Virus record (IMG/VR): IMGVR_UViG_3300015615_000629
Span: 432,711 to 496,710 of that record
Strand: one strand, 5' to 3'
Length of the DNA stretch: 64,000 nt
Source of the DNA: a virus
Taxonomy: Duplodnaviria; Heunggongvirae; Uroviricota; Caudoviricetes
Positions 21,408 through 55,846 of the stretch are shown here, one piece after another; position 1 is the first letter of the stretch, and the number at the start of each line of letters is the position of its first letter. A program made the position numbers and the translations under genes. The notes under the pieces were generated by a model. That model had not been told where the DNA came from and did not search any database. It worked only from the letters and a program-made list of their open reading frames with translations.

Positions 21408-22014
21408 ATCAAGTTGGGATGATGGAGCCAAAGAAGATATAAAACTGGCCGAATTACTCAAAAAATATAACATCAAATCCACTTTCTTTTGGACTGTGGC
21501 TATGAAACATTCCCTTCATATGGGTAAAGTTAAGGAATTCCTTGATGAGAAAGACCTAGAAACTATTGCCAAAGACTTTGAAATAGGTTCTCATGGCTGG
21601 AATCATTCCAGATTAACAGAAGTAGCAGACCACGACTTAAAGCGTGAAATAGTCCATTCAAGACAATATTGGCAGGATAAAGTCAAACAGCCTATCAATG
21701 AATTCTGTTATTCCAGGGGAAGAGCAAACGATAAAATAAAGAAGATGGTTAAAGATGCTGGATACACTTCTGCCCGCTCTACCGTAGTTGGTAATGTAAA
21801 GCAGTCTTTAGACCCATTTTGGATTGAAACTGCGGTCCATGTAGGAATTGATCGTCCCCAATATGATGGTATCCCTTGGCGGGAATTTGGAATAAAAATG
21901 TTTAAACAGGCTAAAGAAACTGATGGTGTTTTCCATTTCTTTGGGCATAGTTGGGAAATAGAGCAAAACAACCAGTGGAAAGCCCTTGAGGGCTTCTTAA
22001 AGGATATATCATGA
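21397..22014 (+). CDS. Polysaccharide deacetylase (NodB / CE4 family)
   Basis: SWDDG is CE4 motif 1 (TFDDG) and GSHGWNH is motif 2. A TTG start is needed to include motif 1. Confidence 0.55.
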   Translation: MEIKSSWDDGAKEDIKLAELLKKYNIKSTFFWTVAMKHSLHMGKVKEFLDEKDLETIAKDFEIGSHGWNHSRLTEVADHDLKREIVHSRQYWQDKVKQPINEFCYSRGRANDKIKKMVKDAGYTSARSTVVGNVKQSLDPFWIETAVHVGIDRPQYDGIPWREFGIKMFKQAKETDGVFHFFGHSWEIEQNNQWKALEGFLKDIS

Positions 22015-22535
22015 GCTTTTACAGAGAACAACTAGAGAAGTATCTATCTGAATTAAATATTAATGCAGAAACCGTCCTAGACGTTGGAGGAAGGCATAAA
22101 TCGGTGCAGGGAAGGACTAAATCTTGGAATGTAAAGAATTATTATGTTTTAGACCTTCCGGAGTACGATTTGGATGAAGAAATCAAGTTTGAACATAAGG
22201 GCGACCTTATCTTCTGTTTAGAAGTATTTGAATACCTAATTAATCCGCTTCAAGGGATGAGGAATATAGCAAGTTTGTTGAAAAAGGACGGCAAGGCTAT
22301 TATTAGTTTTCCTTTGGTCTACCCAGTTCACAATGAAGTTGAAAAGGATAGTTTAAGATTTACAGAAAGTGGAATTAGACGATTGGCGACCAAGGCTGGT
22401 TTGAACGTTTCAAAAGTTAATTACAGAAAGACGAAAAGTAATACATTGGTTCAGTATTTTCACGAAGATGGCATGAGAATGGCTAAAGGGGTCAATCATC
22501 ATGTAACTGGTTATATTTGCGAGATTAAGCACTAA
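22011..22535 (+). CDS. SAM-dependent methyltransferase (Methyltransf_11/23-like)
   Basis: VLDVGG motif I and DLIFCLEVFEYL motif II. ATGA coupling with the upstream stop. Confidence 0.45.
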   Translation: MSFYREQLEKYLSELNINAETVLDVGGRHKSVQGRTKSWNVKNYYVLDLPEYDLDEEIKFEHKGDLIFCLEVFEYLINPLQGMRNIASLLKKDGKAIISFPLVYPVHNEVEKDSLRFTESGIRRLATKAGLNVSKVNYRKTKSNTLVQYFHEDGMRMAKGVNHHVTGYICEIKH

Positions 22536-22542
22536 ATAAGAC

Positions 22543-22881
22543 ATGCTTACATTTGAAGATTGGCTAAAAGAACAACCTCAACATGAGGGATGGGTGAAAA
22601 ATTTAGCAATGACTGGAGCCTTAATGGGTTCTGCATTGGGCGGATACAAATATGCCAACACTAACAACAATCCCAGTAATATACAAAATCAATCTTATAC
22701 GAGTCCGGATGCCGCTGATTACCTTAGCGGTGTTTCTTTAGACGAGCCACAAACCAAACAATCTACAGGTCCATTTGCAGCGGCAAAGAGAAATCGAGAT
22801 GAATTAAGAAACAAAGCCAAGCAATTAAAATCTGCTGGTCGTAAAAGTGGGACATTTGTTCATGGGGAATTACAACCTTGA
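22543..22881 (+). CDS. Hypothetical protein
   Basis: ATG-initiated ORF at the end of the plus-strand block. Confidence 0.4.
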   Translation: MLTFEDWLKEQPQHEGWVKNLAMTGALMGSALGGYKYANTNNNPSNIQNQSYTSPDAADYLSGVSLDEPQTKQSTGPFAAAKRNRDELRNKAKQLKSAGRKSGTFVHGELQP

Positions 22882-22901
22882 CCAATTTCGTGGAGTTTGG
22901 A

Positions 22902-23564
22902 TTAAAGTAACTGGTCGAATTCTGGCCGAAAATATTTACCAATATTTTGCCGTGTTTCTTTTTCCCACTCTTCTGTGGCAAATTTAGGATGTTCTTTATA
23001 ATTGGCGTAAAACACTTTAAATTTATTATCTCCTACCCACGCTTCATGAAGTAATTTGTCGAACCAATCATTTGGTTTATTTCTGGTAGAAAGGATTGTT
23101 ACGTTTTTGGCGTAAGAACATGCCGGTAACAATGCCTTCCAATGTGTATCCATATCTTGTGCGAAAGACATTTCATCTAAAAACAAATAATCCATCGAAC
23201 GACCGCAACAAGATATTGGCGTGCCGAAGTATATTGTAGATCCATTATCAAATTCTACTTGATGATGGTTTGTGCTAACATCGCCCCTTTTTAAAGTCCA
23301 GCGAGCCGCCATACACATTCTATCTGTTTTTGTAACAAACATTGCCTTGGTGTTTGGAGTGCTCAAACAATTCCAATATAACCAATTGCTCATTGTTGTG
23401 GTGAAGCCGCCTTGTCTGAATTTACTGCCAACTACAAACCTGTTTTTACTACATGTTTCAATCAATCTCTTCTGGAAATCGAACAATTCAAATGGAACTT
23501 CTTTAGGGTAGTCTAACGTTACCTCATTCTTGCAATACTCAAAAAATTCTTCGTAATCATTCAT
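22902..23564 (-). CDS. Terminase-large-subunit ATPase-domain paralog (ATPase only, no nuclease domain)
   Basis: FQKRLIETCSKNRFVVGSKFRQGGFTTT (Walker A) and DYLFLDEMSF (Walker B) align block-by-block with the bona fide terminase at 47885..49690 (YQRKVIKDYQKYRFNIISKFRQGGLTTV...FLIIDEAAF...THWK). Confidence 0.6.
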   Translation of the reverse strand: MNDYEEFFEYCKNEVTLDYPKEVPFELFDFQKRLIETCSKNRFVVGSKFRQGGFTTTMSNWLYWNCLSTPNTKAMFVTKTDRMCMAARWTLKRGDVSTNHHQVEFDNGSTIYFGTPISCCGRSMDYLFLDEMSFAQDMDTHWKALLPACSYAKNVTILSTRNKPNDWFDKLLHEAWVGDNKFKVFYANYKEHPKFATEEWEKETRQNIGKYFRPEFDQLL

Positions 23565-24543
23565 TTTTATTCTCCAACATAATTTTAACTAATTCTTCAA
23601 AACTTGTTTTAGGTTCCCAGCCTAGTTTCTCTTTTGCCTTTTTTGAACATCCACGTAAAAATGGCACTTCATTAGGCCGCATAAACTTTTCAGATTCAAC
23701 TACGAAATCCTTCCAATTCAAATCATAATGCCCAAATGCAACCTCAAGGAAACGCTCGACTGTATTAGTCTCCCCAGTAGCTATTACGTAATCATCGCCC
23801 TTGTCTTGTGCCAACATCAATCGCATTGCTTCCACATAATCCTTGGCATATCCCCAATCTCTAGATGCATTTAAATTGCCGAGTTCAAGTTTGGGGTAAT
23901 TAGCAGGATCTAAACAACAACGATATCCCTGAATATAATTAACTATCTTTTGCGTTACAAAATTAGCCCCTCTTCTGGGACTTTCGTGGTTAAACAGTAT
24001 TCCTACACTAGCATGTAATTTATATGTATCTCGATACATCTTCACCATTTGATGAGCCGCTACTTTGGCTACCGCATAAGGAGATACAGGCTCAAACGGA
24101 GTAAGTTCATACTGGTAGTCTACTATCTCGCGGGCGAGATTTGTCCACGCTTTACCGAATTGTTCCGAAGAACCAGCTTGGTAAAAGCGTGCTTCGGGAC
24201 AAATATTGCGATACGCCTCAAGTAGATTAACACAGCCGGTAGCAGTTACTTCAAAGGTATATTTGGGATTCTCATAAGAGATGCCTACATGGGACTGAGC
24301 AGCCAGATTATAAATTTCATCTGGCTTGTACTTAGACAACAAGGCACATAAACAATTAGAATCCGTTACGTCACCATGTTCAAGAGTAAGTTTGGGATGA
24401 TTAACTACACTACTTAATCTCCACAATCCACCCGATGTGCTATGACGACGAATTAAACCAATGACTTCATGACCATCAGCCAAAAGAGATTCGGCTAGAT
24501 AAGAGCCATCCTGACCATTAATCCCTGTGCAAAGGACTTTCAT
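23557..24543 (-). CDS. gmd: GDP-mannose 4,6-dehydratase
   Basis: CTGINGQDGSYLAESLLADGHEV, LAAQSHV, SPYAVAKVAAHQM and FNHESPRRG are canonical Gmd (SDR-extended) motifs. Confidence 0.85.
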   Translation of the reverse strand: MKVLCTGINGQDGSYLAESLLADGHEVIGLIRRHSTSGGLWRLSSVVNHPKLTLEHGDVTDSNCLCALLSKYKPDEIYNLAAQSHVGISYENPKYTFEVTATGCVNLLEAYRNICPEARFYQAGSSEQFGKAWTNLAREIVDYQYELTPFEPVSPYAVAKVAAHQMVKMYRDTYKLHASVGILFNHESPRRGANFVTQKIVNYIQGYRCCLDPANYPKLELGNLNASRDWGYAKDYVEAMRLMLAQDKGDDYVIATGETNTVERFLEVAFGHYDLNWKDFVVESEKFMRPNEVPFLRGCSKKAKEKLGWEPKTSFEELVKIMLENKNE

Positions 24544-24920
24544 TTAACCTCTTGTCGCCCATGTGTTAAAGTTTTAAAGACACCCTTAACGTTTTCCATC
24601 CATGTGTTTGCCCAAGGTCCACGAAATGTTAAAACATAAGTTCTGCCAACACTGTTTACCTTATGAAAAGTATCACGTTTGGTAATAATAGGGAAAAGAG
24701 AAGGCTTATGTTCCTCTACCTCTCCGTCAAAGTGTTGTTCAACCAATTTGCCTGAAAATATCCAACTCACACAGTTGAAAGCATGGCTGTGATATGCTTC
24801 ACGTGTGCCATTTTCAAACCTGAGCAAGGCTATGCTAAATAAGGACTTAATTTCAACCAACCAAAAGCCCCAAACATACGATTCAGGGCCACCATCTTTA
24901 CCACGAGATAGTATTTTCAT
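24540..24920 (-). CDS. Hypothetical protein (possible small cupin / sugar ketoisomerase-like)
   Basis: HSHAFNCVSWIFSG resembles a cupin HxH...G metal site. It is adjacent to gmd. Confidence 0.3.
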   Translation of the reverse strand: MKILSRGKDGGPESYVWGFWLVEIKSLFSIALLRFENGTREAYHSHAFNCVSWIFSGKLVEQHFDGEVEEHKPSLFPIITKRDTFHKVNSVGRTYVLTFRGPWANTWMENVKGVFKTLTHGRQEVK

Positions 24921-25104
24921 TTTTTGTTCTCCATTTTAGACATTCAAGACTATAATCAAAAGTGTGATAAATAATAGTTGCCAATATAAAAAATGGCATA
25001 TCTCTCCATCCTAAATTATTAAATGTCCCACCACAATACAAAACCGCTACTATTACCAAAAAATTAAGCAAAAGGCTTCTTAGCAGGTTAATGAAGAATA
25101 TCAT
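24898..25104 (-). CDS. Small 2-TM membrane protein, paralog of 28777..28974
   Basis: Shares (A/T)V(L)YCGG.(F/I)N and LE(C/Y)(L/I)KW(R/T)K blocks with the other copy. Confidence 0.4.
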   Translation of the reverse strand: MIFFINLLRSLLLNFLVIVAVLYCGGTFNNLGWRDMPFFILATIIYHTFDYSLECLKWRTKNENTISW

Positions 25105-26033
25105 AAACTCTCATAAACCTTTCTATAAGACGCCGCACGTTCCTTACTAGAATGATCTTGAACCGTTCTAAACGCCTGATCTCGAATGGAATTCAGTCTA
25201 TCCCAATTGGCCAACGATTCTGTAATTCTAGTCTTAATTAACTCGACATCCTCATTGCTTCCCCTAATTAACTCCATGTTTTTGCCATTATACAAATCAG
25301 GTACATGCCCTACAAGACGAGATAATACAGGAATTCCACATGACATCGCTTCCAAAATAGGCATTGTGCCAGACTCAAAATTATCCACAGAATTACATAC
25401 ATGCAAAGTGGATTGGTGATAGTATTTAAGCAAATCCTTTTCTAAAACATCCTGATGAAAATCAACACTTCCCGTCTTTAAGACGCTGTTCATATAACCA
25501 CTATCAGAAATCCTTCCGACCAAACATAATCTTAAACCCAATTCCTTACACGCCTGTGCTACTTCCAAGACTCCCTTCTTCCCCTCAATTCTACTAACAG
25601 TCATGTTGATGATGTTACTGTTGGATAAATATGGCACCTTCTTGAAAGCCTCTAAATCAATACCCAAAGGGATGATTTCAGCACTAGGCAGTTCACTCTT
25701 TTGATAAGAATTTACTACAAAAACACGAAGATACTCCTCCCAAAGTTCTTCCTTGAGATTATAGGGATTGTAATGAGTTAAAATCTTCTTTTTGTTATCT
25801 GCCCAAAGTTCTGGAAATAGACTTTTAATCTTCGAAGCAGATTTCCAATACTGAGCATCGACAATATCTGCCCATTTTAGACCCTCCCGAGCCGCTTTCA
25901 TTTGGGCATCATCGGGCTTCTTAGGGTGAAAATAAAGAAGTTTGAAGTCTAAATCTTTATTGTATTTCTGAATGTCCAATGCAAGGGTAGTAATGGCCGT
26001 CTTGGGAGCGGGAACAATTTGTAATATTTTCAT
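25101..26033 (-). CDS. GT4-family (GT-B) glycosyltransferase
   Basis: NFESGTMPILEAMSCGIPVLS is the E-X7-E region. Confidence 0.7.
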   Translation of the reverse strand: MKILQIVPAPKTAITTLALDIQKYNKDLDFKLLYFHPKKPDDAQMKAAREGLKWADIVDAQYWKSASKIKSLFPELWADNKKKILTHYNPYNLKEELWEEYLRVFVVNSYQKSELPSAEIIPLGIDLEAFKKVPYLSNSNIINMTVSRIEGKKGVLEVAQACKELGLRLCLVGRISDSGYMNSVLKTGSVDFHQDVLEKDLLKYYHQSTLHVCNSVDNFESGTMPILEAMSCGIPVLSRLVGHVPDLYNGKNMELIRGSNEDVELIKTRITESLANWDRLNSIRDQAFRTVQDHSSKERAASYRKVYESL

Positions 26034-26086
26034 GAATTAATATAGTGTTTTCTGGTGACGTATAACAAATGTTTTGGTATTCTGCT

Positions 26087-26404
26087 TCATAATTTCTCAA
26101 CACGATAATACCTTTCAGTGATTAGTGCGTTTCTAACATACTCAGCAGCTTCGGCCATAGTGGGAAAAATCCTTTCAGGGCGGTCACTCATAGTTACTAC
26201 GACAGGCAGGGTATTTTGAACACGATAATCCGGAAGTAATGGCTTTCCGCGCAATAATCTAGACAGATGGCGTGGATAAACTCCATCTGCTTGTCTTATT
26301 GTTTCTATTTCTACTTTGTTCAGATCGGCAACCTTTACGTACTCCCTAGCATAATCTGTTTCCACAACATAATAGCAAAAGCATTCTGAAATACTATAAT
26401 TCAT
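26087..26404 (-). CDS. Hypothetical protein
   Basis: ATG-initiated ORF, divergent from 26456. Confidence 0.4.
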   Translation of the reverse strand: MNYSISECFCYYVVETDYAREYVKVADLNKVEIETIRQADGVYPRHLSRLLRGKPLLPDYRVQNTLPVVVTMSDRPERIFPTMAEAAEYVRNALITERYYRVEKL

Positions 26405-26455
26405 AAAATTTCTCCCTCTAATAAATAGTCTAGCAGTTCAATAGATAAAATCCAG

Positions 26456-27460
26456 ATGAAAAAAGTATTATTCGGCCCGGTTTCAAACGCACCTTCCTGG
26501 GAATGGGTAGGTAAAGATATTGCAGAATCCCTAAAAACACACTACGAGGTAGAATTTTTTACGGATAAAATCACCCCAGCAGATGCTATTTTTGTAATAA
26601 AAAAGCCTCTTAACGCCGGACAACTAAGAGACACCCACGGCTCTAAAATCATCTACATTCCAGTGGATTATTTCACCAGCCACGGACACATCTACTCACA
26701 CCGCAAATTCCTGCAAAGTTGCTCCATAATAGGCGTACATTGCGATAAACTTAAATCTCATTTAGGCAAATTCGCTCTTACCCATAACGTAGAACATTAC
26801 CTAAAATACCCAATAAACCCTACCCCTTACAAAGAAAATGGCTTTGTCCTTTGGATCGGCGTCTATGAAACCTTACCTTTCTTCATAAAATACCTTCAAA
26901 CCAATCCAATTGCAAATGATATCAAAATTCTTACCAATCTCTCCAATAAAAGTGCCGTAGGAAGATCGCACAAATTCCAAGCCCATTACAACATAGACCT
27001 GAATAATATACCATTCAAACTTTATGACTGGACGCCTGAATTACAAGCCCAAATGATGTCCGAAGCCAAAGCGGCTATCGAAATCAAAGATGGGGACTTT
27101 ATAGGCTCTCATAAACCACCTACTAAAGCCCAACAATTCATTGCAAATGGCATCCCATTAGCCTGTAAGGGTTATTACGCAACTAATTATTTTAAAAAAT
27201 ATGGTTTTTCAATTCCGGAACCTAACGACTATTGGCTTTCCAAAAAATATTGGGAGAAAACCCAAGAAATGGCCAAAGTCTTAAGGAGAGACCTGTCTTT
27301 AGAAAATGTAAGAAATAAATATATTCAATTTATAGAAGCAAACGAGCCGCAAATTAAGACTACAACGGTTATAACTAAGGATTCAAAGATTAAAAAGAAC
27401 GCACTTACAATGGAACAATGGAAAAGGATTCGGCGATCTTTGAAGCAACGTGGCGGTTAA
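26456..27460 (+). CDS. Conserved hypothetical protein, paralog of 16948..17883
   Basis: See the paralog for the shared blocks. ATG at 26456. Confidence 0.5.
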   Translation: MKKVLFGPVSNAPSWEWVGKDIAESLKTHYEVEFFTDKITPADAIFVIKKPLNAGQLRDTHGSKIIYIPVDYFTSHGHIYSHRKFLQSCSIIGVHCDKLKSHLGKFALTHNVEHYLKYPINPTPYKENGFVLWIGVYETLPFFIKYLQTNPIANDIKILTNLSNKSAVGRSHKFQAHYNIDLNNIPFKLYDWTPELQAQMMSEAKAAIEIKDGDFIGSHKPPTKAQQFIANGIPLACKGYYATNYFKKYGFSIPEPNDYWLSKKYWEKTQEMAKVLRRDLSLENVRNKYIQFIEANEPQIKTTTVITKDSKIKKNALTMEQWKRIRRSLKQRGG

Positions 27461-28250
27461 GCATATGCCCAGTTCGATAACCAGTTATTTTTCCTTCTAA
27501 TCTACAGCCCAACAACCCAAAATCTCCAATCATATCCAATACTTTATGTCTGGCAATTTCATTATCAGTCTTCATTTCTACCAAAAACTTATCCGTGTAA
27601 ATGATATAAGGGCTTTTCGAACAGTTTTTAGGCAATAATTTAAATTCCTTACGTTTCTTCTCCCACAATTTTCCTTCTTCGTCTAAAGGATAATGCAAAC
27701 AAGTCCTGCTCCAAGAGATTTCTTTCCTGTAAATCAATGGATCAATGGTAAAACCTGCAACTTGTGTCCCTAAAGCATTATCATAATCCATTACAGCAGA
27801 CATGGTTATACCGGAAACTGGAGAAGGCTCTACTTCAATATGTTTGTCATTTAAGTAAAACTTCTTTCTCTCCGAAATTCTTATTAAATTAACTGGTTTT
27901 TGAATTTCTAAAAAACCAGTTTTAGAAATTATTCGTGTAAAAATATCAGAACTAGCACAGAAGGGAACTTCCTCTTGATCTAATTCGATTAAAATATTAT
28001 CCAATCCAAGGCCGTATATGGCAGATAACAGGTGTTCAGTCATAATAACGCGAACACCATCTTTTTTAAGCGTTGTAGTCAAACCTACTTCTTCATGATC
28101 TATAAACTCCAACAAGGCTGGAATAAAGGTATCTTTTACCTTAAAAACAACGCCATTGTCATGAGGATGACAATGCATGGCTATTTTCTTCCCGCTTCTT
28201 AAGGCTCGTCCTTTAAGAGTAAACGAAGAAGATAGTGTGGTTTGTTTCAT
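27405..28250 (-). CDS. LpxC-family zinc deacetylase (UDP-3-O-acyl-GlcNAc deacetylase-like)
   Basis: MKQTTL...GRALRSGKKIAMHCHP...VRVIMTEHLLSAIYGLGLDNILIELDQEEVPF...HKVLDMIGDFGLLG...GYRTGHMLNRHV. This aligns along its whole length with E. coli LpxC, including the HKxLD and GH.LN motifs. Confidence 0.75.
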   Translation of the reverse strand: MKQTTLSSSFTLKGRALRSGKKIAMHCHPHDNGVVFKVKDTFIPALLEFIDHEEVGLTTTLKKDGVRVIMTEHLLSAIYGLGLDNILIELDQEEVPFCASSDIFTRIISKTGFLEIQKPVNLIRISERKKFYLNDKHIEVEPSPVSGITMSAVMDYDNALGTQVAGFTIDPLIYRKEISWSRTCLHYPLDEEGKLWEKKRKEFKLLPKNCSKSPYIIYTDKFLVEMKTDNEIARHKVLDMIGDFGLLGCRLEGKITGYRTGHMLNRHVASKIAESFSIVPL

Positions 28251-28756
28251 TTGGCAAAAATTCCCATCTTATTCTTGCCAGCAAATACGTTTAACTCCCA
28301 AGGATAAAGACTAGAGAATTCTTCATAAGTCCAACCGGAAATATGTTGTTCATTAATGTTGTCATAATGAATTTTTGCTGGACGGATTTCGCCGGAATTT
28401 TCACTTAAAGGGACAGATACAACCACATGATTATATCTGTTTAAGGCTTTAGAAAGAATTTCTTCGGCATCTTGTTTAGGAAGATGCTCAAGAATATCGC
28501 CGAAGATTATGCAGTCAGCAGTAGGTAATTCGACGAAACGAATGTCGCCGATAATGATTCTCTCGTAATACTGCTTTAGATTAAACTGCTCTACGTAAGG
28601 CTCCCAGATTTCAATAGCTATATAATGATATTCTGGGCCTAACAGGCGTGGATAGGTAGCAGAACCAGCCCCAACATCAACAATATACTTAATATCTGGC
28701 TGCTTCTGTAACCACTCTTTAATCTCTTGTTTACCTTGAACTACACTTCCTGGCAT
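28247..28756 (-). CDS. Class I SAM-dependent methyltransferase
   Basis: IVDVGAGSA motif I and IIFGDILEHL motif II/III. Confidence 0.6.
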   Translation of the reverse strand: MPGSVVQGKQEIKEWLQKQPDIKYIVDVGAGSATYPRLLGPEYHYIAIEIWEPYVEQFNLKQYYERIIIGDIRFVELPTADCIIFGDILEHLPKQDAEEILSKALNRYNHVVVSVPLSENSGEIRPAKIHYDNINEQHISGWTYEEFSSLYPWELNVFAGKNKMGIFAK

Positions 28757-28776: not shown

Positions 28777-28974
28777 TTACTCCAATTTAGTCCATTTAAT
28801 ATATTCAAGCGTTAAATCTATGACAATGAAAGTAAAAATAACGGGAAAGAAAAACAGCCAAAACCTAAAGTTTATAGCATTTATGCCGCCGCAATAAACA
28901 GCAGTTGACATTACCAGCATCGAAAGAACGAACCCTCTTATAAATTCAATTTTGTTTCTTGTCATAATTGTCAA
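28777..28974 (-). CDS. Small 2-TM membrane protein, paralog of 24898..25104
   Basis: Hydrophobic. The first of three overlapping small TM ORFs. Confidence 0.35.
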   Translation of the reverse strand: MTIMTRNKIEFIRGFVLSMLVMSTAVYCGGINAINFRFWLFFFPVIFTFIVIDLTLEYIKWTKLE

Positions 28975-29188
28975 TTTTAAATAAAACCCAAGAAAGGAAA
29001 AGATACATTATACAACAAATTACGCACGATATAACTAGTTTTAAAGATACACTGCCCTCGGAAAAATAGGTAATCGCCAACGCAAATATCAAAAGCATCT
29101 CAAAACGAATTACCAGAGACATTATCGAATTTATATTAAAAAGAGATTCTGGTGCTTCTCCAAAATATTGATAAGGATTATCTTCCAT
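28946..29188 (-). CDS. Small 2-TM membrane protein
   Basis: Overlaps its neighbours by 29 nt and 11 nt. Confidence 0.3.
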   Translation of the reverse strand: MEDNPYQYFGEAPESLFNINSIMSLVIRFEMLLIFALAITYFSEGSVSLKLVISCVICCIMYLFLSWVLFKIDNYDKKQN

Positions 29189-29381
29189 CTGATCGTTTAA
29201 GAAATCTTAAATCCAAGGTAAGGAAAAAAGCGAACAAGAGCAATTGTAACATAAATGTTGACAAATTCGAGCCGAGTATAAAGAATGAAAAGATCATTCC
29301 TATAACACAGCCAATAGCAAAGGGAAATTTCAGCCAAATATCGAAAAGGTATTTCATTTTAAACCTTTCTTTTAAAAACAA
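29178..29381 (-). CDS. Small 2-TM membrane protein
   Basis: Hydrophobic ORF. Confidence 0.3.
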   Translation of the reverse strand: MFLKERFKMKYLFDIWLKFPFAIGCVIGMIFSFFILGSNLSTFMLQLLLFAFFLTLDLRFLKRSDGR

Positions 29382-29639: not shown

Positions 29640-30635
29640 TTATATTTCCTTTACATAATTAATCACACCAAACATTTTACTTCCTTCACGTAATAGCTTC
29701 CTAATCATACATGTCCTCGACGGCAAATCCACCATGAAAGGTGAGAAAACATATCCATTGAGATAGTAATCAGATTTGGGCTTTGCTACAATTAATACCT
29801 TGTCTTTTGGCATATATGTCGAAGTGTATTCTAAAGAATCCGTCGAACCGCCAGATAAAACAAACTTATCCTCATGGAGTAGCACCTTGATTAAACAATC
29901 ATGATTGTCAGGATGCGTTAAAATACTAAAAGATAATTCTTCCTTATCAATATTGGTTTTTTCTAATATCTTCGCTTTTACAGAGTCAATCATGTTGCGA
30001 AGAGATGCATTACGAGTTATATGAAATTCTGTATCGAAAAGACTGTTCTCAGGACATGTATAATGATAAACCGTCCCACTCCAATTGATTAAATCTTCAA
30101 TCAAAAGCTTGTTTAACTCATCTATACCAGCGTCATATATGCCACAACAATAATTTTCACTCTCAAAAACCCATTTGTCACCTCTGTCCCTCTTGTAAAA
30201 AATAAGACCATTTTGATCAACAAGCGGAGTACAACCTAAAAGGTATGGACTGATTATTTGCGACAATTTAGATTTAATCCTGTCTATATCAAAATCCGTC
30301 TCAAGAAATTCGCTAAAACTCTTTTGATTCTCCAATATTATTGCCACACATTGCTCAGTCCAAATTCCACAGGATAAATCTGCTTTATCTTTCCACTTGC
30401 TATGAATCGCCTCTACTTCTCGCTCTGCCAAATATTTGTAATAATCTATCGGCCAGTAAAAAACAGATCTCTCATACTTCTCATTATTCATGAAATCAAA
30501 AATTACTTTTTGATTATACCTCCGATGCCCACCCTCCGTCTTAATTACCTTTAACTTGTCATCCCACTTCCTCAATGTCTGAGGTGAAACTTGCAATAAA
30601 GTTGCAACGTCCTTTAATGTCAATAATTGCTCCAT
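29640..30635 (-). CDS. MerR/excisionase-type HTH DNA-binding protein with a large C-terminal domain
   Basis: LTLKDVATLLQVSPQTLRKWDDKLKVIKTEGGHRRY is an HTH_17/MerR N-terminal signature. Confidence 0.55.
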   Translation of the reverse strand: MEQLLTLKDVATLLQVSPQTLRKWDDKLKVIKTEGGHRRYNQKVIFDFMNNEKYERSVFYWPIDYYKYLAEREVEAIHSKWKDKADLSCGIWTEQCVAIILENQKSFSEFLETDFDIDRIKSKLSQIISPYLLGCTPLVDQNGLIFYKRDRGDKWVFESENYCCGIYDAGIDELNKLLIEDLINWSGTVYHYTCPENSLFDTEFHITRNASLRNMIDSVKAKILEKTNIDKEELSFSILTHPDNHDCLIKVLLHEDKFVLSGGSTDSLEYTSTYMPKDKVLIVAKPKSDYYLNGYVFSPFMVDLPSRTCMIRKLLREGSKMFGVINYVKEI

Positions 30636-31571: not shown

Positions 31572-32417
31572 TTATTTCTCTATTTGAACAGGAGCCTTCT
31601 GAACAGGTACAGTAACCAACGGCATTATTCCACCACTTCCCACAAACTGTGGCGAAATTCCATTCCACTTTTGAACCATGCCATATTGAATCAACTCGGG
31701 CGTTATACTCTCAGCCAATATCTTGTTAGCCTTAGCCTGTGCCTCCGCTACCATCAATATCGACTGTGCTTCACCTTCCGCTTCCGCAATTTGCTGCCGT
31801 GCTTCAGCCTCTGATTGCTTCACCTTGTTCTCAGCCTTAATCGCCAACTGTGAAGCCTCAATTGTCGCATTAATAGAAGCTTCTACGGACTGATCCACAC
31901 GTAATTTGCCCACAATCGCTATCGTATCAAATACAAATCCATCCTTCTCTAACTTAATCTGTAAATCAGACTTGATCTGCTCCAACAAGTCCTGCCGCAT
32001 TACCCCAAAAATATCCATCACCTTCATCTTGCTGGCATGAATCGTAAACGCATCCCTCACCTGCTGCCGCAAATATTGATGAGATACGTACTCTATATCC
32101 TTACGTAAATCTACAAAAATATGAGCAACCTTATCTTCCCGAATCCGGTAACTAACACTCACATCACACTCAACACGAGTACCTTCTACCGAGTTAAATG
32201 TAATAGCCTCTTCCCCAACCCAATTTACCATATTTAAAAATGTAGGGAATTTATACACTTCAGTCGTGAAAGGATTATACCAAACCCGTCCCGTCTTTAA
32301 GGGGAAATCTTCAACACCCTTTTGATTGCCATATTGATTTACCTTGATACCTACATATCCAGGCTCAACCTTCGCACAACCAGCCAACACCAAAACACCA
32401 ATCAACAAATAACGCAT
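31572..32417 (-). CDS. SPFH/Band-7 (stomatin/prohibitin/HflC-like) lipoprotein
   Basis: Lipobox LVLAGC. VEPGYVGIKV...LKTGRVWYNPF...VECDVSVSYRI is an SPFH-domain N-terminal pattern. A C-terminal A/E/Q-rich coiled-coil follows. Confidence 0.65.
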   Translation of the reverse strand: MRYLLIGVLVLAGCAKVEPGYVGIKVNQYGNQKGVEDFPLKTGRVWYNPFTTEVYKFPTFLNMVNWVGEEAITFNSVEGTRVECDVSVSYRIREDKVAHIFVDLRKDIEYVSHQYLRQQVRDAFTIHASKMKVMDIFGVMRQDLLEQIKSDLQIKLEKDGFVFDTIAIVGKLRVDQSVEASINATIEASQLAIKAENKVKQSEAEARQQIAEAEGEAQSILMVAEAQAKANKILAESITPELIQYGMVQKWNGISPQFVGSGGIMPLVTVPVQKAPVQIEK

Positions 32418-32614
32418 TACTTTCCTTTATAGAAAAATTTTGAACTCTTTATACAAATCAAAACACTAACAAAAAACCAACCCACCAAAACTACTAAACC
32501 GTAAATCACCGATTCAGTATTCGGTTCAGTTATCAAATCAAGGCTGTTAGTTAGGACTGGCATTGTAACTAAAAACCATATTATCGCAATAGTAACCAAA
32601 ATAAGGTATTTCAT
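32417..32614 (-). CDS. Small 2-TM membrane protein immediately upstream of the SPFH gene (NfeD-position partner)
   Basis: Hydrophobic. Its stop overlaps the SPFH start. Confidence 0.4.
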   Translation of the reverse strand: MKYLILVTIAIIWFLVTMPVLTNSLDLITEPNTESVIYGLVVLVGWFFVSVLICIKSSKFFYKGK

Positions 32615-32642
32615 TTTTTCTCCTCCACACTATAATGATTTC

Positions 32643-33500
32643 ATGATTATTGAAACAGATTTAGGCCACGATCCAGATGACTTCTTTACTATCTGCTATC
32701 TCGCCGCCGTCAACGTAGAAATAGAGTCTATCCTAATTACTCCAGGCGATCCAGATCAAATTGCCATCGCTAAATTCCTCTGTAAAGAATTAGGACTAAA
32801 TATCCCAATCGGTGTCTCTCGCCCAGATAGAAATAAATCTTCCTGCCGTGGCATTCATACTGATGTTCTTAACAAATACAAGTTCCCACTAACCGCAAAA
32901 CCCGATGGATTGGGAATTGACATTCTTAAAGAGATCGTAAACGAAAAAACCGAATTTTTAATTATTGGACCCGTTGAGAGTATAGGTAAATATCTGGCGG
33001 AAAATCCAGATAAAACCATTAAAAAAGCCACCATGCAAGGCGGCTTCCTCGGATACAATTTACACAATTACGATTGTGTTAAAATAGATAAATTTGAAAA
33101 TACTATCTGGCAGCCAACTTTTAATCTAAACGGCAACAGAAAAGCAGGTGTTGACTTTTTAAACGCAAATATAAAAGAACGTAGAATGGTAGGTAAGAAT
33201 GTTTGTCATACTATTGTGTATGATAAAGATGTTTTAAGTAATACAAATCCACCCCCAAATAGAGCCGCAGAAATATTCTATGAAACTATGTCCATGTATC
33301 TAGAAAAACATGAACACAAGAAGTTTCATGATCCAACCGCTGCGATCTGTCACCTAAACCCAGAAATAGGCCAATGGGTTCGTGGTAAAACAGTTAAAAT
33401 GGAATCCGGTTGGGGAACCGTCTTAGATGATAATGGAGATTATATATTGGCAAACATTGACCAAAATACTCTATGGGAACACATTACACAATGGAAATAA
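32643..33500 (+). CDS. Inosine-uridine-preferring nucleoside hydrolase (IUNH) family-like protein
   Basis: N-terminal IIETDLGHDPDDFFTICYL matches the DxDxGxDD aspartate cluster of nucleoside hydrolases. A C-terminal His-containing region is present. Confidence 0.5.
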   Translation: MIIETDLGHDPDDFFTICYLAAVNVEIESILITPGDPDQIAIAKFLCKELGLNIPIGVSRPDRNKSSCRGIHTDVLNKYKFPLTAKPDGLGIDILKEIVNEKTEFLIIGPVESIGKYLAENPDKTIKKATMQGGFLGYNLHNYDCVKIDKFENTIWQPTFNLNGNRKAGVDFLNANIKERRMVGKNVCHTIVYDKDVLSNTNPPPNRAAEIFYETMSMYLEKHEHKKFHDPTAAICHLNPEIGQWVRGKTVKMESGWGTVLDDNGDYILANIDQNTLWEHITQWK

Positions 33501-34929: not shown

Positions 34930-36345
34930 CTAAATTGTTTTTATATATCTCAAATGCCCTGCATCCCAAATTCTATCATAGCCATTTAACTTCATAATCT
35001 CATATTCCGGCAAGTCGGTAGAATACCCCTCCATTTTAACCAGTTTATGCTTTTGAAACTTCATCCTGTTAAAAAATTGTTTGTTCTTTATATTGTAATA
35101 CCCATATCCAGGTGAAGTTATCCCATCTAATTTAAATCCAATCTTTTCATACAAACCACCAATAGAATACCTTCGATCAGCATAAGACATAATGCTCTTT
35201 ACATCAAAACACTTCAACAATTTGCTAGCACCTCCAACAATATTCACTCCAAGTCTAGAACAATATCTTTTTAATTCATATCCATATTGTTTGTTCGGTA
35301 CAAGAGTCATGCAGGCGACTAATTCTCCATCGTGATACAAACCATATGCTAACTTAGAGTTGTCACTGCCTTGTAAGTGATTGATATTTAGAAAATTATT
35401 CTTTTCTTCAAACGACAACTCCTTTGACACCGTCTGGCGAGCATAAATTACAGCATTTGTTCTTAAATAGCCAGACAAACGGGATTTAACAATATCTTGT
35501 TTGTTTTCCCATTCATTCTCATATATCTGAATCAGGCGTATACCTAATTTGTCTGCAATTTCGGCTTTTTGAAAATGTAGTTTTTTACCAACTACAGACT
35601 CGGTGTGCCAATACATTCCATGATATTCTACCCCAAGTTTTAGTTCTGGAAGATAAATATCTATTTCTTTATAGTCTAACAAACGCTGATTAGTCTGTAT
35701 TTCACCGGAATGTTTAGTTTTAATGAAATCAGCAATCTCACGTTCACCTCTAGATTGGGACATCTCCCCAACACAACCGGGGCAGGCCAAATCAGACTTA
35801 AGATGTGTATAAGCAGCCTGTTCAAAGTCGCCATGTTTTTTACAAGTTATCTTAATTTTATCATGGGCTTTTGTGTAGTCGCCGTGATAAGTGAATTTGC
35901 CGCCATGCGTTTCAGTTGCTAGTTTCTCGAATGTTTGAACATTATAAGCCACGCCACCTTTACATTTCGGACAACCATTTTTAATGTTTATATGATTTGT
36001 TGCCGATTGGATAAATTCTCCATGATTAGGACAAATTATGGTTACTTTAGTGTAGATTCCATTAACGAGATCAACTTTAGAATAGTCATAAAAATCTCCA
36101 TGAACTTCTCTGGCACGTTTGATAAAAGTTTCTTTGGTGTGCTTGCCTACACCTCTACCAGCACAATGAGGGCAGCCACATTTTAAATGTCGATATGGAT
36201 ACTGTTCTACATCACCATGCCTTGGGCATTTGTAGAGAATCTTGGTAACTTTGTTGACATAAACGGTTTCTGAATAATCGTATTTGTCGCCATGTTTGGC
36301 GGTGGCTTTAACAAAAAACTTGGCTGGACTGGCTTTGCTAGACAT
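34930..36345 (-). CDS. Composite homing-endonuclease-like protein: three tandem Cys/His zinc-ribbon modules, a DUF559/Vsr-like PD-(D/E)xK nuclease and a GNAT-like tail
   Basis: Three repeats of HGDKYDYS..V......CP.HG.F.Q.......GCP.C. GVEYHGMYWHTE...IRLIQIYENEW is a DUF559-type motif. The C-terminal VGGASKLL...LYEKIGFKL resembles acyltransferase motifs A/B. Confidence 0.5.
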   Translation of the reverse strand: MSSKASPAKFFVKATAKHGDKYDYSETVYVNKVTKILYKCPRHGDVEQYPYRHLKCGCPHCAGRGVGKHTKETFIKRAREVHGDFYDYSKVDLVNGIYTKVTIICPNHGEFIQSATNHINIKNGCPKCKGGVAYNVQTFEKLATETHGGKFTYHGDYTKAHDKIKITCKKHGDFEQAAYTHLKSDLACPGCVGEMSQSRGEREIADFIKTKHSGEIQTNQRLLDYKEIDIYLPELKLGVEYHGMYWHTESVVGKKLHFQKAEIADKLGIRLIQIYENEWENKQDIVKSRLSGYLRTNAVIYARQTVSKELSFEEKNNFLNINHLQGSDNSKLAYGLYHDGELVACMTLVPNKQYGYELKRYCSRLGVNIVGGASKLLKCFDVKSIMSYADRRYSIGGLYEKIGFKLDGITSPGYGYYNIKNKQFFNRMKFQKHKLVKMEGYSTDLPEYEIMKLNGYDRIWDAGHLRYIKTI

Positions 36346-36441: not shown

Positions 36442-37884
36442 TTAGATTACAAAGTTAGCAATCGAGAGACGGGCATAGAACTTAGCACCTTCACGCAAGA
36501 GCTTTTTACCATATCGGGTAATTAAACCTTTACGAGGACAGAATCCATCTGGGTCTAATACAACCGGAGTTTGTGTAAGCGGCACATACGGGCAGAAGAA
36601 GTAACCCGAATCCATATAAGAATCACCTTTATAACCTAATAACATTTGGTTAGTTGGGAACAAAGGATCCTTATACAAACGCCAACGGGTATTAACCGTT
36701 CCCACGTACTGAACACCAAGCGAGCTGGTGAAGGTTTCAGACGGGGCTGGGGCGAAACCAGCGGTAGCGGTTTCAAACATCGAGGCAACTTCCGGAGAAG
36801 TTACGATCCAGTTAGCACCACCACGCAAGGTCTTACGGTGAACTTGGTTCGAAATTTCAACAGTCTTTACGAACAAAGATTCATACTTTTCTTTAATCGT
36901 GTCACCGAGGGCCGTGTTGAAATCCCAAGACGAAACAGTACCAGCACTGGTACGCAAGTCACTGAGAACTTCACGGTCGATTTCAAGATTAACTTCCTGA
37001 GCCAAAACAGCGGTCAATTCTTGTTCGGCATCAAGGTTATGCTGCGAACGAATATCTTGCTGGGCTTCGTAGCTCCAAACGGCTTTCAACTTACGGCTCT
37101 TAGCGACAATTTCTTCGCTTTCGATAACCATGTTGATTTCCGGGAGGTCTTGATTACACTCCATATTGTATTCATAGGATACAATTGCATAATTCGTGCT
37201 AGGAGTACCACCAGTCCAAGCAATGGTCAATTCACCCGTGGTGACGTTAACCGTGCTACCGGCCTGAAGACCCTTAACAGTCGGAGTTCCGATATCGACA
37301 AACGTAACTGTGCCACCTTCAGAAACGCTGAAAGTTTGAACAGCCGTAGCCGATTCATACAACGTTCCCGTAATGGTTCCGGCAAAAACCGGCGTGTGCT
37401 TGAACGGTTCGAAGACCGTGGTCGAGGCACCACCTGCATCGCTAGCCAAGGTTTCGTTCTGGACGAACGAGCTTGAGTAATAGATGTCAAGGTTTGCATC
37501 ACCAGAAGCGGTCTGCATCAAGCTTCTTGAATCATCACCTGGGAATCCGGAATTGCTTGCACCGAGGGTAGCACCCTTGTCGCTTCCGTAACGGAAACGG
37601 AGGTAGTACACCAAGCCGGTCGGGCCGAGCAACGGCTGAACCGACACAACTTTATTGGCAATCAACTGCGGATAAATACGACGAACAAGCGGAATACTAA
37701 TACGCTTGAAGTTTGCTACGTCAGAACTATCAGTAGCGGTTTCATTCATTAATCTCTGGTTTTCGAGAAGGACAGCTGCGCATGATCGGGTAAAGCGATC
37801 ATTGATGCCTTCCAGCAAACCAGTCGGTGCCCAGAGTGATTCACACTCTTTGGCTTCATTTAAGAATCTAGAATTTCCTTCCAT
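36442..37884 (-). CDS. Major capsid protein, T4 gp23-like
   Basis: LLENQ...ISIPLVRRIYPQLIANKVVSVQPLLGPTGLVYYLRFRY is a conserved gp23-family N-terminal region. The gp21/gp22 neighbours agree, as do the GC-richer codon usage and the terminator. Confidence 0.75.
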   Translation of the reverse strand: MEGNSRFLNEAKECESLWAPTGLLEGINDRFTRSCAAVLLENQRLMNETATDSSDVANFKRISIPLVRRIYPQLIANKVVSVQPLLGPTGLVYYLRFRYGSDKGATLGASNSGFPGDDSRSLMQTASGDANLDIYYSSSFVQNETLASDAGGASTTVFEPFKHTPVFAGTITGTLYESATAVQTFSVSEGGTVTFVDIGTPTVKGLQAGSTVNVTTGELTIAWTGGTPSTNYAIVSYEYNMECNQDLPEINMVIESEEIVAKSRKLKAVWSYEAQQDIRSQHNLDAEQELTAVLAQEVNLEIDREVLSDLRTSAGTVSSWDFNTALGDTIKEKYESLFVKTVEISNQVHRKTLRGGANWIVTSPEVASMFETATAGFAPAPSETFTSSLGVQYVGTVNTRWRLYKDPLFPTNQMLLGYKGDSYMDSGYFFCPYVPLTQTPVVLDPDGFCPRKGLITRYGKKLLREGAKFYARLSIANFVI

Positions 37885-47884: not shown

Positions 47885-49690
47885 TTACCAGTTAAATTCT
47901 CTTAGTAATTTATCATATTTTCTTCTAAATTGGAACTCCGGTGGAAGATTTTCATCATAAGAATCCAATTTTGGGTCAAATACAGGTTCTTCAACAACTT
48001 CAGGCAATCCTTCTCTAATTGCTGCGTGGATTTCGGCCATTAAATCTGGTGTAATTTGTGGTTTTAGAACTTCATGAGAAATATTTGCTCCAACCGGAAG
48101 ATTTCTATAATTCGTATTTATAGCATACATGGACATTGCCATAGCCATAATAGCATCGTCGTGCTTCCCTTTTTGAGCTTGGGCTTTCTTGGTTCTGGCA
48201 TTAAACAAGAAACTTCTTAGTTCTTCTGTAAATCTGTAACTTCTAATTAATAGCGATTTATTGAGAAGTCTAGACTGAAGTGCTTCTAGGAAAACAGGTC
48301 TGTTTGCCGATGAGGTTTTTACGCCAGGAGCGACTTTTTTACTTTTATTTTCATCATAGAAAATAGATTCATATTGAAGATCATGTTCTAAGTAACTTAA
48401 AACAGCGGCACCATAAGAACTTTGTTCAACAATAACTAGGGCTGTGTTGTAGTAAAGTCCCATGCTTCTTAGGTTTATGGCAAATTCTCTGGATGGAATT
48501 GTGTTGCTATAAAATTCTGCCACTTGTTCCATTTTGTTAATATCGATAATTTGATAGCAACTATTATCGGCAGGGCCACCAGTTCCTTCGGCACAGTCTG
48601 CTCCAATAACGTATTCATGTCCTTCTATTGGCTCTTTCCAAATCCACAAGGCTCCTATATCCCATTCATGTTTTTGGGCTGTGGCGTTACGCCATTCTTT
48701 CATAAGAATTCTAGCGGGTATAATTTCAGATACTTCCCTTGATAGTTGAACGATTAGGTCGGATGGAAAGAAGGTAGAACCGGAACCGATAAAACTTCTA
48801 AGAATTTCTTGTTTCCAGCCTTGTTCACCAAGCATTGCCTTGGTGTCGTTTACCCATTTTTTATCTGAATATTGCGGGTGTTCCCAGTAATCTAAATCAA
48901 TTACATGGAACGGACCTTGGCCTGATTCTGCTTTATGATAGGTTTCTTCATACCAGTTACCTACGCCATTAACCGTGGAAACAACGATACATTTACCACC
49001 GGTAGCGATAGTAGGATAAAGTGATTTCCAATGGGTTTCCATATCAGCGACGAATGCAGCTTCGTCGATGATTAGAAAGGTCATAGATTTACCACGAGCG
49101 GCTTCAGGAGTATAAAACTGAAGTCTGGAGCTGGTTTCTTTGAATAATTTTTCGTGTTTTGTGGGCGGTTCAACTTTCTTGTCATACATCCAAAGAGGGA
49201 GATGTTCTAACATTCTGTCAACAATTTCACCGGCTGACATGGCTTCACGGTCGGTTTTAGAAGCAACAAGCAGCTGTTGGTCTTTTTTGTACATACATCG
49301 CCACGCACCCCAAATAACGGTAACAGTGGTTAATCCACCTTGACGGAATTTGCTGATTATATTAAACCTATACTTTTGGTAGTCCTTGATTACCTTGCGT
49401 TGATATTTATAAGGGATAAAGGGAACCATACCGAAAGCTGGATGCATGATTTTTACGTAACGGTGACAGAAGTAGGGGAAACTTTTTACACATTTCTCTA
49501 TTTCTTGATATTGTCGTTCGGCTGAGAATTTTTCTGGATTTTCGTTCCAATCAATTTCTAGCTCGTATTTGTCAAATTCGTAAAATTTAGAATAGGCTTC
49601 CCATTCCGGAGTACGAACAATATCTTTAACCCTTGTGAATTTTCTGTAAAATTCTTCAAACGGTTCTGGTAAACTTTCTAAGTGGTCCAT
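47885..49690 (-). CDS. Terminase large subunit, T4 gp17-like
   Basis: Walker A is ISKFRQGGLTT, Walker B is FLIIDEAAF, and a C-terminal RNaseH-like nuclease region is present (DCAEG...D). Confidence 0.85.
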   Translation of the reverse strand: MDHLESLPEPFEEFYRKFTRVKDIVRTPEWEAYSKFYEFDKYELEIDWNENPEKFSAERQYQEIEKCVKSFPYFCHRYVKIMHPAFGMVPFIPYKYQRKVIKDYQKYRFNIISKFRQGGLTTVTVIWGAWRCMYKKDQQLLVASKTDREAMSAGEIVDRMLEHLPLWMYDKKVEPPTKHEKLFKETSSRLQFYTPEAARGKSMTFLIIDEAAFVADMETHWKSLYPTIATGGKCIVVSTVNGVGNWYEETYHKAESGQGPFHVIDLDYWEHPQYSDKKWVNDTKAMLGEQGWKQEILRSFIGSGSTFFPSDLIVQLSREVSEIIPARILMKEWRNATAQKHEWDIGALWIWKEPIEGHEYVIGADCAEGTGGPADNSCYQIIDINKMEQVAEFYSNTIPSREFAINLRSMGLYYNTALVIVEQSSYGAAVLSYLEHDLQYESIFYDENKSKKVAPGVKTSSANRPVFLEALQSRLLNKSLLIRSYRFTEELRSFLFNARTKKAQAQKGKHDDAIMAMAMSMYAINTNYRNLPVGANISHEVLKPQITPDLMAEIHAAIREGLPEVVEEPVFDPKLDSYDENLPPEFQFRRKYDKLLREFNW

Positions 49691-55725: not shown

Positions 55726-55846
55726 TAAATAGTATAGTAACAGAAAGGCTTTAATGTTTTTATTGGTTAAAAGTTTATTCAACAGGTTGATAGGTTATGC
55801 CGGAGCCGAAAAACAAGATTTTTTGCATCTTACCGGCAACATTAGC

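Follow-up and report, generated by a model that had tools for sequence, protein, structure and literature searches.

What does a prohibitin-like membrane protein do for a huge phage? The question is raised by a 64,000-nucleotide stretch of viral DNA (hereafter the window; positions 432,711 to 496,710 of the IMG/VR record IMGVR_UViG_3300015615_000629, Caudoviricetes), in which the interval from 31572 to 32614 contains two open reading frames (ORFs), both on the minus strand and arranged head to tail. The upstream ORF encodes a small protein with two transmembrane (TM) segments (hereafter the hairpin protein), and the downstream ORF encodes an SPFH/Band-7 lipoprotein. An earlier reading of this DNA, made from the letters alone (the sequence-only reading), connected the pair with an MscL homologue elsewhere in the window and proposed that the phage manipulates host membrane tension or lysis timing. 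Our analyses favour another role. The pair is a new and divergent representative of a phage gene family that has been catalogued but not characterised in function, and its two genes form a self-contained mobile cassette. The reading that we favour, with a probability of about 0.55, is that the two products build an HflKC-like cage that encloses host inner-membrane proteins.

The gene pair, its SPFH lipoprotein and their relatives

The hairpin gene (65 aa, two TM segments by hydropathy) occupies 32417..32614 (−), and the gene for the SPFH/Band-7 (prohibitin/HflKC-like) lipoprotein (281 aa, identified with Pfam, PHROG, AlphaFold2 and Foldseek) occupies 31572..32417 (−). They meet in a TAATG junction (32415..32419, −), where the TAA of the hairpin gene (32417-32419) and the ATG of the SPFH gene (32415-32417) share one base. 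A strong Shine-Dalgarno (SD) sequence, GGAGGA (32621..32626, −), stands 6 nt upstream of the hairpin gene ATG (32612-32614), and a ribosome-binding site, AAGGA (32423-32427, −), precedes the SPFH gene. The overlap of stop and start implies that translation of both genes is coupled; overlaps of 1, 4 or 8 nt are likewise present in most related loci. On the other side, a homologue of inosine-uridine nucleoside hydrolases (32643-33500, +; E 2e-11) is divergent from the pair. Its ATG and that of the hairpin gene are separated by only 28 bp, so the promoter of the pair must be inside or beyond that gene. A promoter and terminator scan of the 29–35 kb interval gave counts at chance level and no convincing promoter.

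We confirm the proposed SPFH/Band-7 identity by profile search. Pfam Band_7 (PF01145) matches residues 16-207 with E 1.7e-20 (74.3 bits against a cutoff of 23.6 bits), and PHROG_200, annotated as 'lipoprotein', matches residues 4-279 with E 7.9e-70 (236.9 bits). The claim that the protein is a lipoprotein also holds at the sequence level: the N-terminus (MRYLLIGVLVLAGC) has a canonical L-A-G-C lipobox with Cys14, which conforms to the pattern for bacterial lipoproteins ([LVI][ASTVI][GAS]C). The signal peptide (MRYLLIGVLV-LAGC, aa 1-14; 32376..32417, −) starts with a basic n-region, continues with a hydrophobic h-region and ends in the lipobox (L11-A12-G13-C14; nt 32376-32387). In an alignment of 20 homologues, Cys14 and 25 other residues are invariant, and the lipobox is present in 179 of 232 unfused homologues.

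The AlphaFold2 (AF2) model of the SPFH protein, based on 101 homologues, has a mean pLDDT of 90.5. It consists of an alpha/beta SPFH domain (residues 13-174), a continuous helix (residues 176-237) and a short helix (residues 240-249), followed by a low-confidence, unstructured C-terminal tail. On the DNA, the SPFH domain as delimited by Pfam spans 31797..32372 (−) and the long helix 31707..31892 (−). This helix of 62 residues, rich in Ala, Glu and Gln, aligns with the HflK helix and bears out the long coiled-coil tail expected by the sequence-only reading; as modelled, it would correspond to the coiled-coil wall of SPFH cages. Near the C-terminus, a motif with invariant W251, G253 and P256 (W251-N-G253-x-x-P256; 31650..31667, −) and the hydrophobic tail behind it are a candidate cap or oligomerisation element.

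In structural comparison, the protein most resembles subunits of SPFH cages. The best Foldseek matches of the AF2 model are full-length prohibitin, HflK/C, erlin and stomatin cage subunits (E 1e-14 to 1e-11), and the range extends to 1e-9 when QmcA and flotillin are included; the top match is the prohibitin 8rrh_A (E 1.2e-14), and HflC/K (7vhq) is also matched. A family sequence profile finds the same kinds of protein among solved structures (i.e. HflK at 2e-6, PHB1 (prohibitin-1) at 9e-6 and QmcA at 1e-4). The prohibitin, HflK/C and erlin families face away from the cytoplasm. The window protein is no close copy of HflK: it scores 21.2 bits with the HflK equivalog TIGR01933 (NCBIfam), below the threshold of 159.4 bits, and a single SPFH gene with a lipobox takes the place of the paralogous HflK/HflC gene pair with its N-terminal TM anchor.

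Relatives of this protein are widespread in phages. Our tblastn search finds them in 767 of 50,697 phage records (about 1.5%), all with less than 41% identity, and identity to any isolated phage is at most about 40%. The relatives include the T7-like Desulfovibrio phage ProddE, P1-like phages, the rV5-like phage PVP-SE1, Pseudomonas temperate phages, podophage Ab22 (Bruynoghevirus), Erwinia phage M7 (Kolesnikvirus), phiCbK-like phages of Caulobacter, Lak megaphages, and Herelleviridae of Staphylococcus (where the protein is MbpS), Enterococcus and Bacillus. Searched against 1.84 billion representative proteins, the family profile retrieves 774 clusters at E <= 1e-30 and 3414 at E <= 1e-10. The annotation names of the phage proteins are diverse (lipoprotein, prohibitin, serine protease and transposase). 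A megablast of 7 kb against the phage collection, a single-protein scan of viral contigs and a contig look-up by exact protein gave no match.

The hairpin partner, its linkage and its fusions

The hairpin protein (MKYLILVTIAIIWFLVTMPVLTNSLDLITEPNTESVIYGLVVLVGWFFVSVLICIKSSKFFYKGK) has hydrophobic segments at about residues 1-23 and 34-57 and a basic C-terminal tail. The positive-inside rule predicts that both ends are cytoplasmic and that the short loop LDLITEPNTES is periplasmic. On sequence grounds, the 65-aa ORF is a real gene rather than a chance ORF, because homologous hairpin ORFs hold the same position in distant phages. A hidden Markov model (HMM) built with the clade of the window left out (i.e. 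from the distant 'classic' clade only) gives the window hairpin 16.2 bits (E 9e-4), a score that only one of 2000 block-shuffled decoys reaches, and it also scores the N-terminal parts of fusion proteins that belong to the same SPFH clade as the window protein. Iterated three times, the HMM gives the window hairpin 34.6 bits. Relatives of the hairpin match PHROG 1130 ('membrane protein'), PHROG 11742 and PHROG 11110, and commonly have the loop motif P-x-L-[IVF]-S-A-[KR]-[SD]-x-x-x-[VL]-x-x-G; in the window hairpin and those of its nearest SPFH relatives the loop is longer and more divergent.

The upstream two-TM micro-protein had been described as standing where NfeD normally sits. The position is indeed that of NfeD in SPFH-NfeD operons, but the identity is not: the protein has 65 aa, extends only about eight residues beyond TM2 and contains no NfeD or OB-fold domain, and a Pfam search with the window partner and 10 relatives gave no match to any family, NfeD (PF01957) included. 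By these comparisons, the small partner probably belongs to a distinct, fast-evolving hairpin family that is tied specifically to this SPFH subfamily.

The strength of this tie can be counted. The iterated HMM matches 147 of 174 SPFH loci, with the hairpin directly upstream in 133 of them, at most 1 kb upstream in seven, fused in five and downstream in two, while the other 16,759 six-frame ORFs in 1.15 Mb, the whole 64-kb window included, gave no match. When SPFH proteins are clustered at 70% identity, 50 of 68 clusters have the partner. By position and hydropathy alone, 80 IMG/VR loci yield a hairpin ORF in 25 of 33 SPFH clusters, and manual inspection of loci missed by the HMM reveals further hairpins and fusions (e.g. 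in deltaproteobacterial metagenome-assembled genomes (MAGs), Sphingomonas and Sutterella). A small two-TM ORF is in the same place in ProddE, Pseudomonas phage Ostro, a P1-like phage and two metagenomic phage contigs; in PVP-SE1 an additional gene separates the upstream hairpin ORF from the SPFH gene, and in Caulobacter phages the neighbour has three TM segments. Overall, the linkage spans T7-like, P1-like and rV5-like phages, Pseudomonas temperate phages, a Lak megaphage, enterobacterial prophages and Sphingomonas. Synteny does not extend beyond the pair: none of eight window neighbours has a homologue in the 173 other SPFH loci.

Two side observations concern annotation and anchoring. The hairpin gene is unannotated in the P1-like phage MH422554 (L002, 2257-2493) and in JGI Ga0134121_10000025 (L006, 5780-6004), and gene calling probably misses small partner genes of this family more widely. 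Three Sutterella loci (L135, L136 and L143) keep the upstream hairpin and encode an SPFH protein without the lipobox Cys; these proteins appear to be anchored by an uncleaved N-terminal TM helix instead.

Fusion of neighbouring genes is classic evidence for physical association, and the hairpin and SPFH proteins are repeatedly fused in nature. The layout of the fusions runs from the hairpin through a basic linker and a signal peptide or hydrophobic segment with a lipobox to the SPFH domain. An N-terminal hairpin is detected by the HMM in 36 of 268 fetched homologues, 25 of which have a lipobox, and 34 of 150 best representatives at 50% identity have an N-terminal extension of at least 55 aa. 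The lipobox Cys is invariant in an alignment of 17 natural fusions (alignment A3). The N-terminus of one fusion, P0003, matches PHROG 1130, and its AF2 model (pLDDT 73) has three helices followed by the SPFH fold. The topology predicted for such a protein is self-consistent: the basic tail behind TM2 and the basic linker would be cytoplasmic, and the third helix would lead to a periplasmic SPFH domain. Fusion to the hairpin also ties the SPFH domain to the cytoplasmic membrane. The internal lipobox Cys is kept in P0003, P0013, P0015, P0016, P0020, P0031 and other fused proteins of the same alignment, and their sequences suggest that signal peptidase II may split the fused precursor, with a three-TM piece and the mature lipoprotein as products.

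The residue that follows the lipobox Cys (+2) bears on the side of the envelope. In all 15 Enterobacterales members examined it is acidic (Asp in ten, Glu in five), and Asp at +2 is a Lol-avoidance (inner-membrane retention) signal in E. coli. Together, the natural fusions and the acidic +2 residue would locate the complex at the inner membrane, on its periplasmic face, and we infer the same destination for the window SPFH protein from its family.

Possible roles of the cassette in a huge phage genome

In the cage model that we favour, the 65-aa product would form a helical hairpin in the cytoplasmic membrane of the host, its two ends facing the cytoplasm, while the 281-aa product would be exported, lipidated at Cys14 and attached to this membrane from the periplasmic side. 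They would associate in a ratio of about 1:1, and the long helix would drive oligomerisation into a ring or cage, which would close off part of the inner membrane, a proposal made by analogy with prohibitin, HflK/C, erlin and QmcA-YbbJ. The hairpins would supply a transmembrane 'palisade', as the N-terminal TM helices do in HflK/C and PHB2. For the phage, the benefit would be an accessory take-over of the host membrane: host inner-membrane proteins would be enclosed or sequestered, and the enclosure would change what the host membrane quality-control machinery reaches during infection.

The clients of such a cage can be considered by analogy. HflK/C and prohibitins cage FtsH-type AAA proteases, which makes modulation of host membrane-protein quality control through an FtsH-type client our leading guess, although we hold it to be less likely than not. 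An LpxC homologue (UDP-3-O-acyl-GlcNAc deacetylase; 27405-28250, −; Pfam PF03331, E 1e-49) shares the strand of the pair and lies 3.3 kb downstream of it. LpxC performs the committed step in the synthesis of lipid A and, in E. coli, is a classic substrate of FtsH. This fit is suggestive, but LpxC is not conserved with the cassette. A narrower version, in which the cassette encodes a portable periplasmic cage that captures a host complex, with FtsH as the top candidate, and mimics or out-competes HflK/C, seems rather unlikely to us. If it were true, FtsH capture would stabilise substrates such as the phage LpxC, sigma-32 and CII-type lysogeny regulators.

Several points weigh against the cage model: (i) the window hairpin is divergent, and neither the PHROG search nor a word-based homologue search with the 65-aa protein gave a match; (ii) a detectable hairpin is absent in 18 of the 68 SPFH clusters, and the loci that the hairpin HMM scores, many of them redundant, also served for its iterative construction; (iii) phages of Gram-positive hosts have another, single-TM neighbour (Kayvirus MbpV, and in Enterococcus and Bacillus phages); (iv) all structure predictions are of monomers, which limits what they say about oligomers and hairpin-SPFH contact; (v) the score with the HflK equivalog is below its cutoff, so FtsH binding is not transferable by homology; (vi) the +2 residue of the window SPFH protein is Ala, and the protein may be sorted to the outer membrane, away from the hairpin; and (vii) an HflK/C-like prophage SPFH protein of Pasteurella (PM0222), a possible homologue of the window family, is reported in outer-membrane vesicles (PMC9872710). 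Moreover, papers up to 2026 call the role of the phage proteins unclear (PMC13239085, PMC7150955, PMC10269572, PMC8540360). Among the speculations offered are a helper function in the export of Tgl by Sec in Kayvirus (PMC7150955), lysogeny driven by an HflC-like effect (PMC10269572, PMC8540360) and a role in adsorption or DNA entry (PMC13239085). Searches of the literature on PAK_P3 and on Kayvirus mbpS brought up nothing usable on the expression timing of homologues.

A further question is whether the pair belongs to the phage at all. The suspicion that the region might be host-derived DNA is refuted by its surroundings: genes for the major head protein (36442-37884, −), portal (44227-46767, −) and large terminase (47885-49690, −) lie 4-17 kb upstream of the pair on the same strand, and the G+C content around the pair (0.38) matches that of the rest of the window. 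With its counterpart in LR756511, an uncultured phage of 595 kb, the head protein shares 70% identity, and beyond this record it resembles T4-type gp23 proteins (about 30% identity). A protein identical to the window SPFH protein is found on a record from a 572,167-bp JGI contig.

The family is nevertheless not confined to phages, as chromosomal copies in MAGs reveal. Six deltaproteobacterial MAGs (L091, L092, L093, L095, L098 and L106) contain hairpin-SPFH pairs that are 51-53% identical to the window protein, with the hairpin gene about 65 nt upstream of the SPFH gene; in all of these except L093, the pair directly follows a rodA/ftsW-like (SEDS) gene, which is located some 300-400 nt further upstream. 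The arrangement is a hint that, in the deltaproteobacterial lineage, the two genes are residents of the bacterial chromosome. Close homologues (51-56% identity) on large bacterial MAG contigs would agree with a passenger gene (i.e. a bacterial p-prohibitin acquired from a host, or a surface lipoprotein of lysogenic conversion that serves the bacterium). For the latter there is a possible parallel in Pasteurella PM0222, which lies in a prophage island and for which virulence and TLR2 activation have been reported (PMC9872710). A passenger is improbable, however, in view of the retention of the gene in the 767 phage records, many of them from strictly lytic families, the native composition of the pair, the intact, translationally coupled operon and the invariant residues of the SPFH protein; lysogenic conversion would also bring no gain to a lytic huge phage.

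The position of the cassette in other phages points to an accessory and mobile element. In P1-like phages the pair lies in the variable dmt-ban region, where canonical P1 has plp, upl and tciABC, and it is present only in P1-like variants, not in canonical P1. An identity with P1 'upl-plp' is rejected, as plp in canonical P1 (NC_005856) is a 125-aa gene on the other strand and is not an SPFH gene; P1 upl and plp are both non-essential by CRISPRi (PMC10695390), which has no bearing on the cassette. In the other phages, with the exception of Kayvirus, the cassette is located among DNA-metabolism and early genes or in variable, accessory regions rather than in lysis modules.

This mobility would fit superinfection exclusion or inter-phage defence, in which the complex would alter the inner membrane and block DNA entry of a second phage. 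T4 Imm/Sp and P22 SieA are exclusion proteins that act by blocking such entry. Besides the dmt-ban location in P1-like phages, a place among early genes close to the integrase of Pseudomonas phage Ostro, the frequency of the cassette in Enterobacterales and Pseudomonas prophages and the PHROG category of the hairpin relatives ('moron, auxiliary metabolic gene and host takeover') fit this explanation, and lytic phages carry the cassette too, as they often do with such genes. Still, neither protein of the pair matches a PADLOC-DB v2 defence model at E <= 0.01, and no exclusion phenotype has been reported for the cassette. Homology of the hairpin to T4 Imm is rejected (the hairpin HMM gives T4 Imm −3.0 bits), and a 'superinfection exclusion protein' annotated beside the SPFH gene of phage PhiSH19 is soluble, so it is not the hairpin. 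The fixed chromosomal site beside the rodA/ftsW-like gene in several deltaproteobacterial MAGs is, moreover, a housekeeping-like position. We therefore regard exclusion as unlikely, and the cage model remains the reading that we favour.

The lysis-timing proposal of the sequence-only reading relied on the MscL homologue. This gene is real (55234-55782, −; Pfam MscL 72.7 bits against a cutoff of 27.4 bits; TIGR00220 68.3 bits against a cutoff of 71 bits), and its product has an N-terminal extension of about 30 aa. The link to the pair, by contrast, finds no support, since the gene is about 23 kb away, MscL-like genes are present in just 17 of the 50,697 phage records (several of these resemble bacterial DNA) as against 767 for SPFH relatives, and no accession is common to both among the matches listed. 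The MscL homologue is a separate curiosity, unusual for a phage. More broadly, the hairpin could be a holin- or antiholin-like pore that is checked by the SPFH protein, or the pair could act with MscL. The layout of the hairpin (about 65 aa, two TM segments and a basic C-terminal tail) is that of class II holins, eukaryotic stomatins regulate ion channels, and in Kayvirus the endolysin gene lysK and tgl flank mbpS together with mbpV, which encodes its single-TM neighbour (PMC7150955). Despite this topology, a class II holin is not supported: the neighbours tested around the pair and around MscL include no endolysin or spanin, and the hairpin family is linked to SPFH proteins and not to lysins. 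The cassette of T7-like, rV5-like, P1-like and Pseudomonas phages stands among replication and early genes, and neither fusions that form lipoprotein precursors nor bacterial chromosomal copies would be expected of holins. A role in lysis timing or membrane tension is thus quite improbable.

The remaining neighbours raise the possibility of an envelope function. Downstream of the pair, an envelope-glycan gene cluster (22011-28756) contains genes for a GDP-mannose 4,6-dehydratase (23557-24543; E 1e-107), a GT1 glycosyltransferase (25101-26033), LpxC and a methyltransferase (28247-28756), with an unassigned 334-aa ORF on the opposite strand (26456-27460). The minus-strand gene string of the pair runs on into these genes, and an SPFH microdomain could gather Sec or envelope enzymes as a scaffold for export or assembly in the service of phage envelope, lipopolysaccharide or glycan functions. 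Bacterial flotillins scaffold secretion and cell-wall enzymes, and a role of this kind has already been proposed for Kayvirus MbpS (PMC7150955). Flotillins face the cytoplasm, however, whereas the phage SPFH protein is exported, and none of the envelope-gene neighbours accompanies the cassette elsewhere; we consider such a scaffold very improbable.

The window has several other features. Between the methyltransferase gene and a gene for a 331-aa protein with an N-terminal MerR/excisionase-type helix-turn-helix (29640-30635, −; the helix-turn-helix matches PADLOC 'mad1', E 1e-8, and the remainder is unassigned), three consecutive small hydrophobic ORFs of 65, 80 and 67 aa (28777-29381, −) gave no match to the hairpin HMM. 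A large HNH/homing endonuclease gene (34930-36345, −; PHROG 559, E 4e-108) lies immediately downstream of the major head gene, and a transposase-like gene is present at 59120-60214 (−; PHROG 506, E 1e-113). There are no tRNA genes in the window. The LpxC homologue, the lipobox and the SD sequences point to a host that is probably Gram-negative and uses SD-led translation.

Comparison with known systems

The window pair is an ordinary family member in an unusual genome, that of a huge phage that also has LpxC and MscL homologues. As far as we found, the conserved hairpin partner, its repeated fusion and the periplasmic inner-membrane design have not been described in the searchable literature. 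Judged from sequence, the main phage SPFH subfamily appears to be exported and lipid-anchored; it travels with a dedicated hairpin partner, in two genes or as a fusion, and its strongest resemblance is to the outward-facing prohibitin/HflKC cages. The cage model is testable, and PVP-SE1, P1-like phages, Pseudomonas temperate phages and ProddE are tractable systems for this purpose.

Close counterparts are found in phages with members of PHROG 200 and PHROG 1130 (PVP-SE1 gp117/gp115; ProddE 010/009; Ostro; MH422554). They have the same SPFH family, the same gene order and often the same overlap, together with the hairpin motif P-x-L-[IV]-S-A-K-S/D ... G; by contrast, the window hairpin has a longer loop and no direct match to PHROG 1130, and the window phage is about 570 kb in size. 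Another counterpart is the MbpV-MbpS pair of Kayvirus (Staphylococcus phage K/G1 group), in which a small membrane protein is also encoded directly upstream with an overlap and MbpS is 27% identical to the window protein. MbpV, however, has one TM segment and a long charged tail, MbpS has a TM anchor without a lipobox, and the genes are in the lysis region (PMC7150955).

Among cellular systems, SPFH-NfeD operons (QmcA-YbbJ, PDB 8z5g; FloA-NfeD; PH1511-PH1510) likewise combine an SPFH protein with a small adjacent membrane partner, and 1:1 complexes are known for QmcA-YbbJ. NfeD proteins have a soluble OB-fold, sometimes with a ClpP-type protease, and face the cytoplasm, whereas the window partner is a bare hairpin and its SPFH protein is exported. 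HflK/HflC of E. coli (SPFH3; PDB 7vhq, 7wi3 and 9cz2) share with the window protein a periplasmic SPFH domain followed by a long helix (Foldseek E about 1e-13; HflK profile match as given above) and an N-terminal membrane tether. They differ in being a paralogous pair with N-terminal TM segments, while the window has one SPFH gene, a lipid anchor and a separate two-TM hairpin. Prohibitins (PHB1/PHB2; PDB 8rrh and 9o9z) are the best structural match, and GenBank annotators have placed homologues from phages in cd03401 (SPFH_prohibitin); the window protein nevertheless shares about 17% identity with the PDB chains, has a lipoprotein anchor and is phage-borne.

In the scheme of Hinderhofer et al. 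(2009), the window SPFH protein is closest in spirit to the SPFH4 'p-prohibitins', which were predicted to face the periplasm and for which no NfeD partner was found (PMC2636767). A hairpin partner is not described in that survey, and our results suggest that these bacterial proteins gain a candidate partner where earlier work had found none of the NfeD type.

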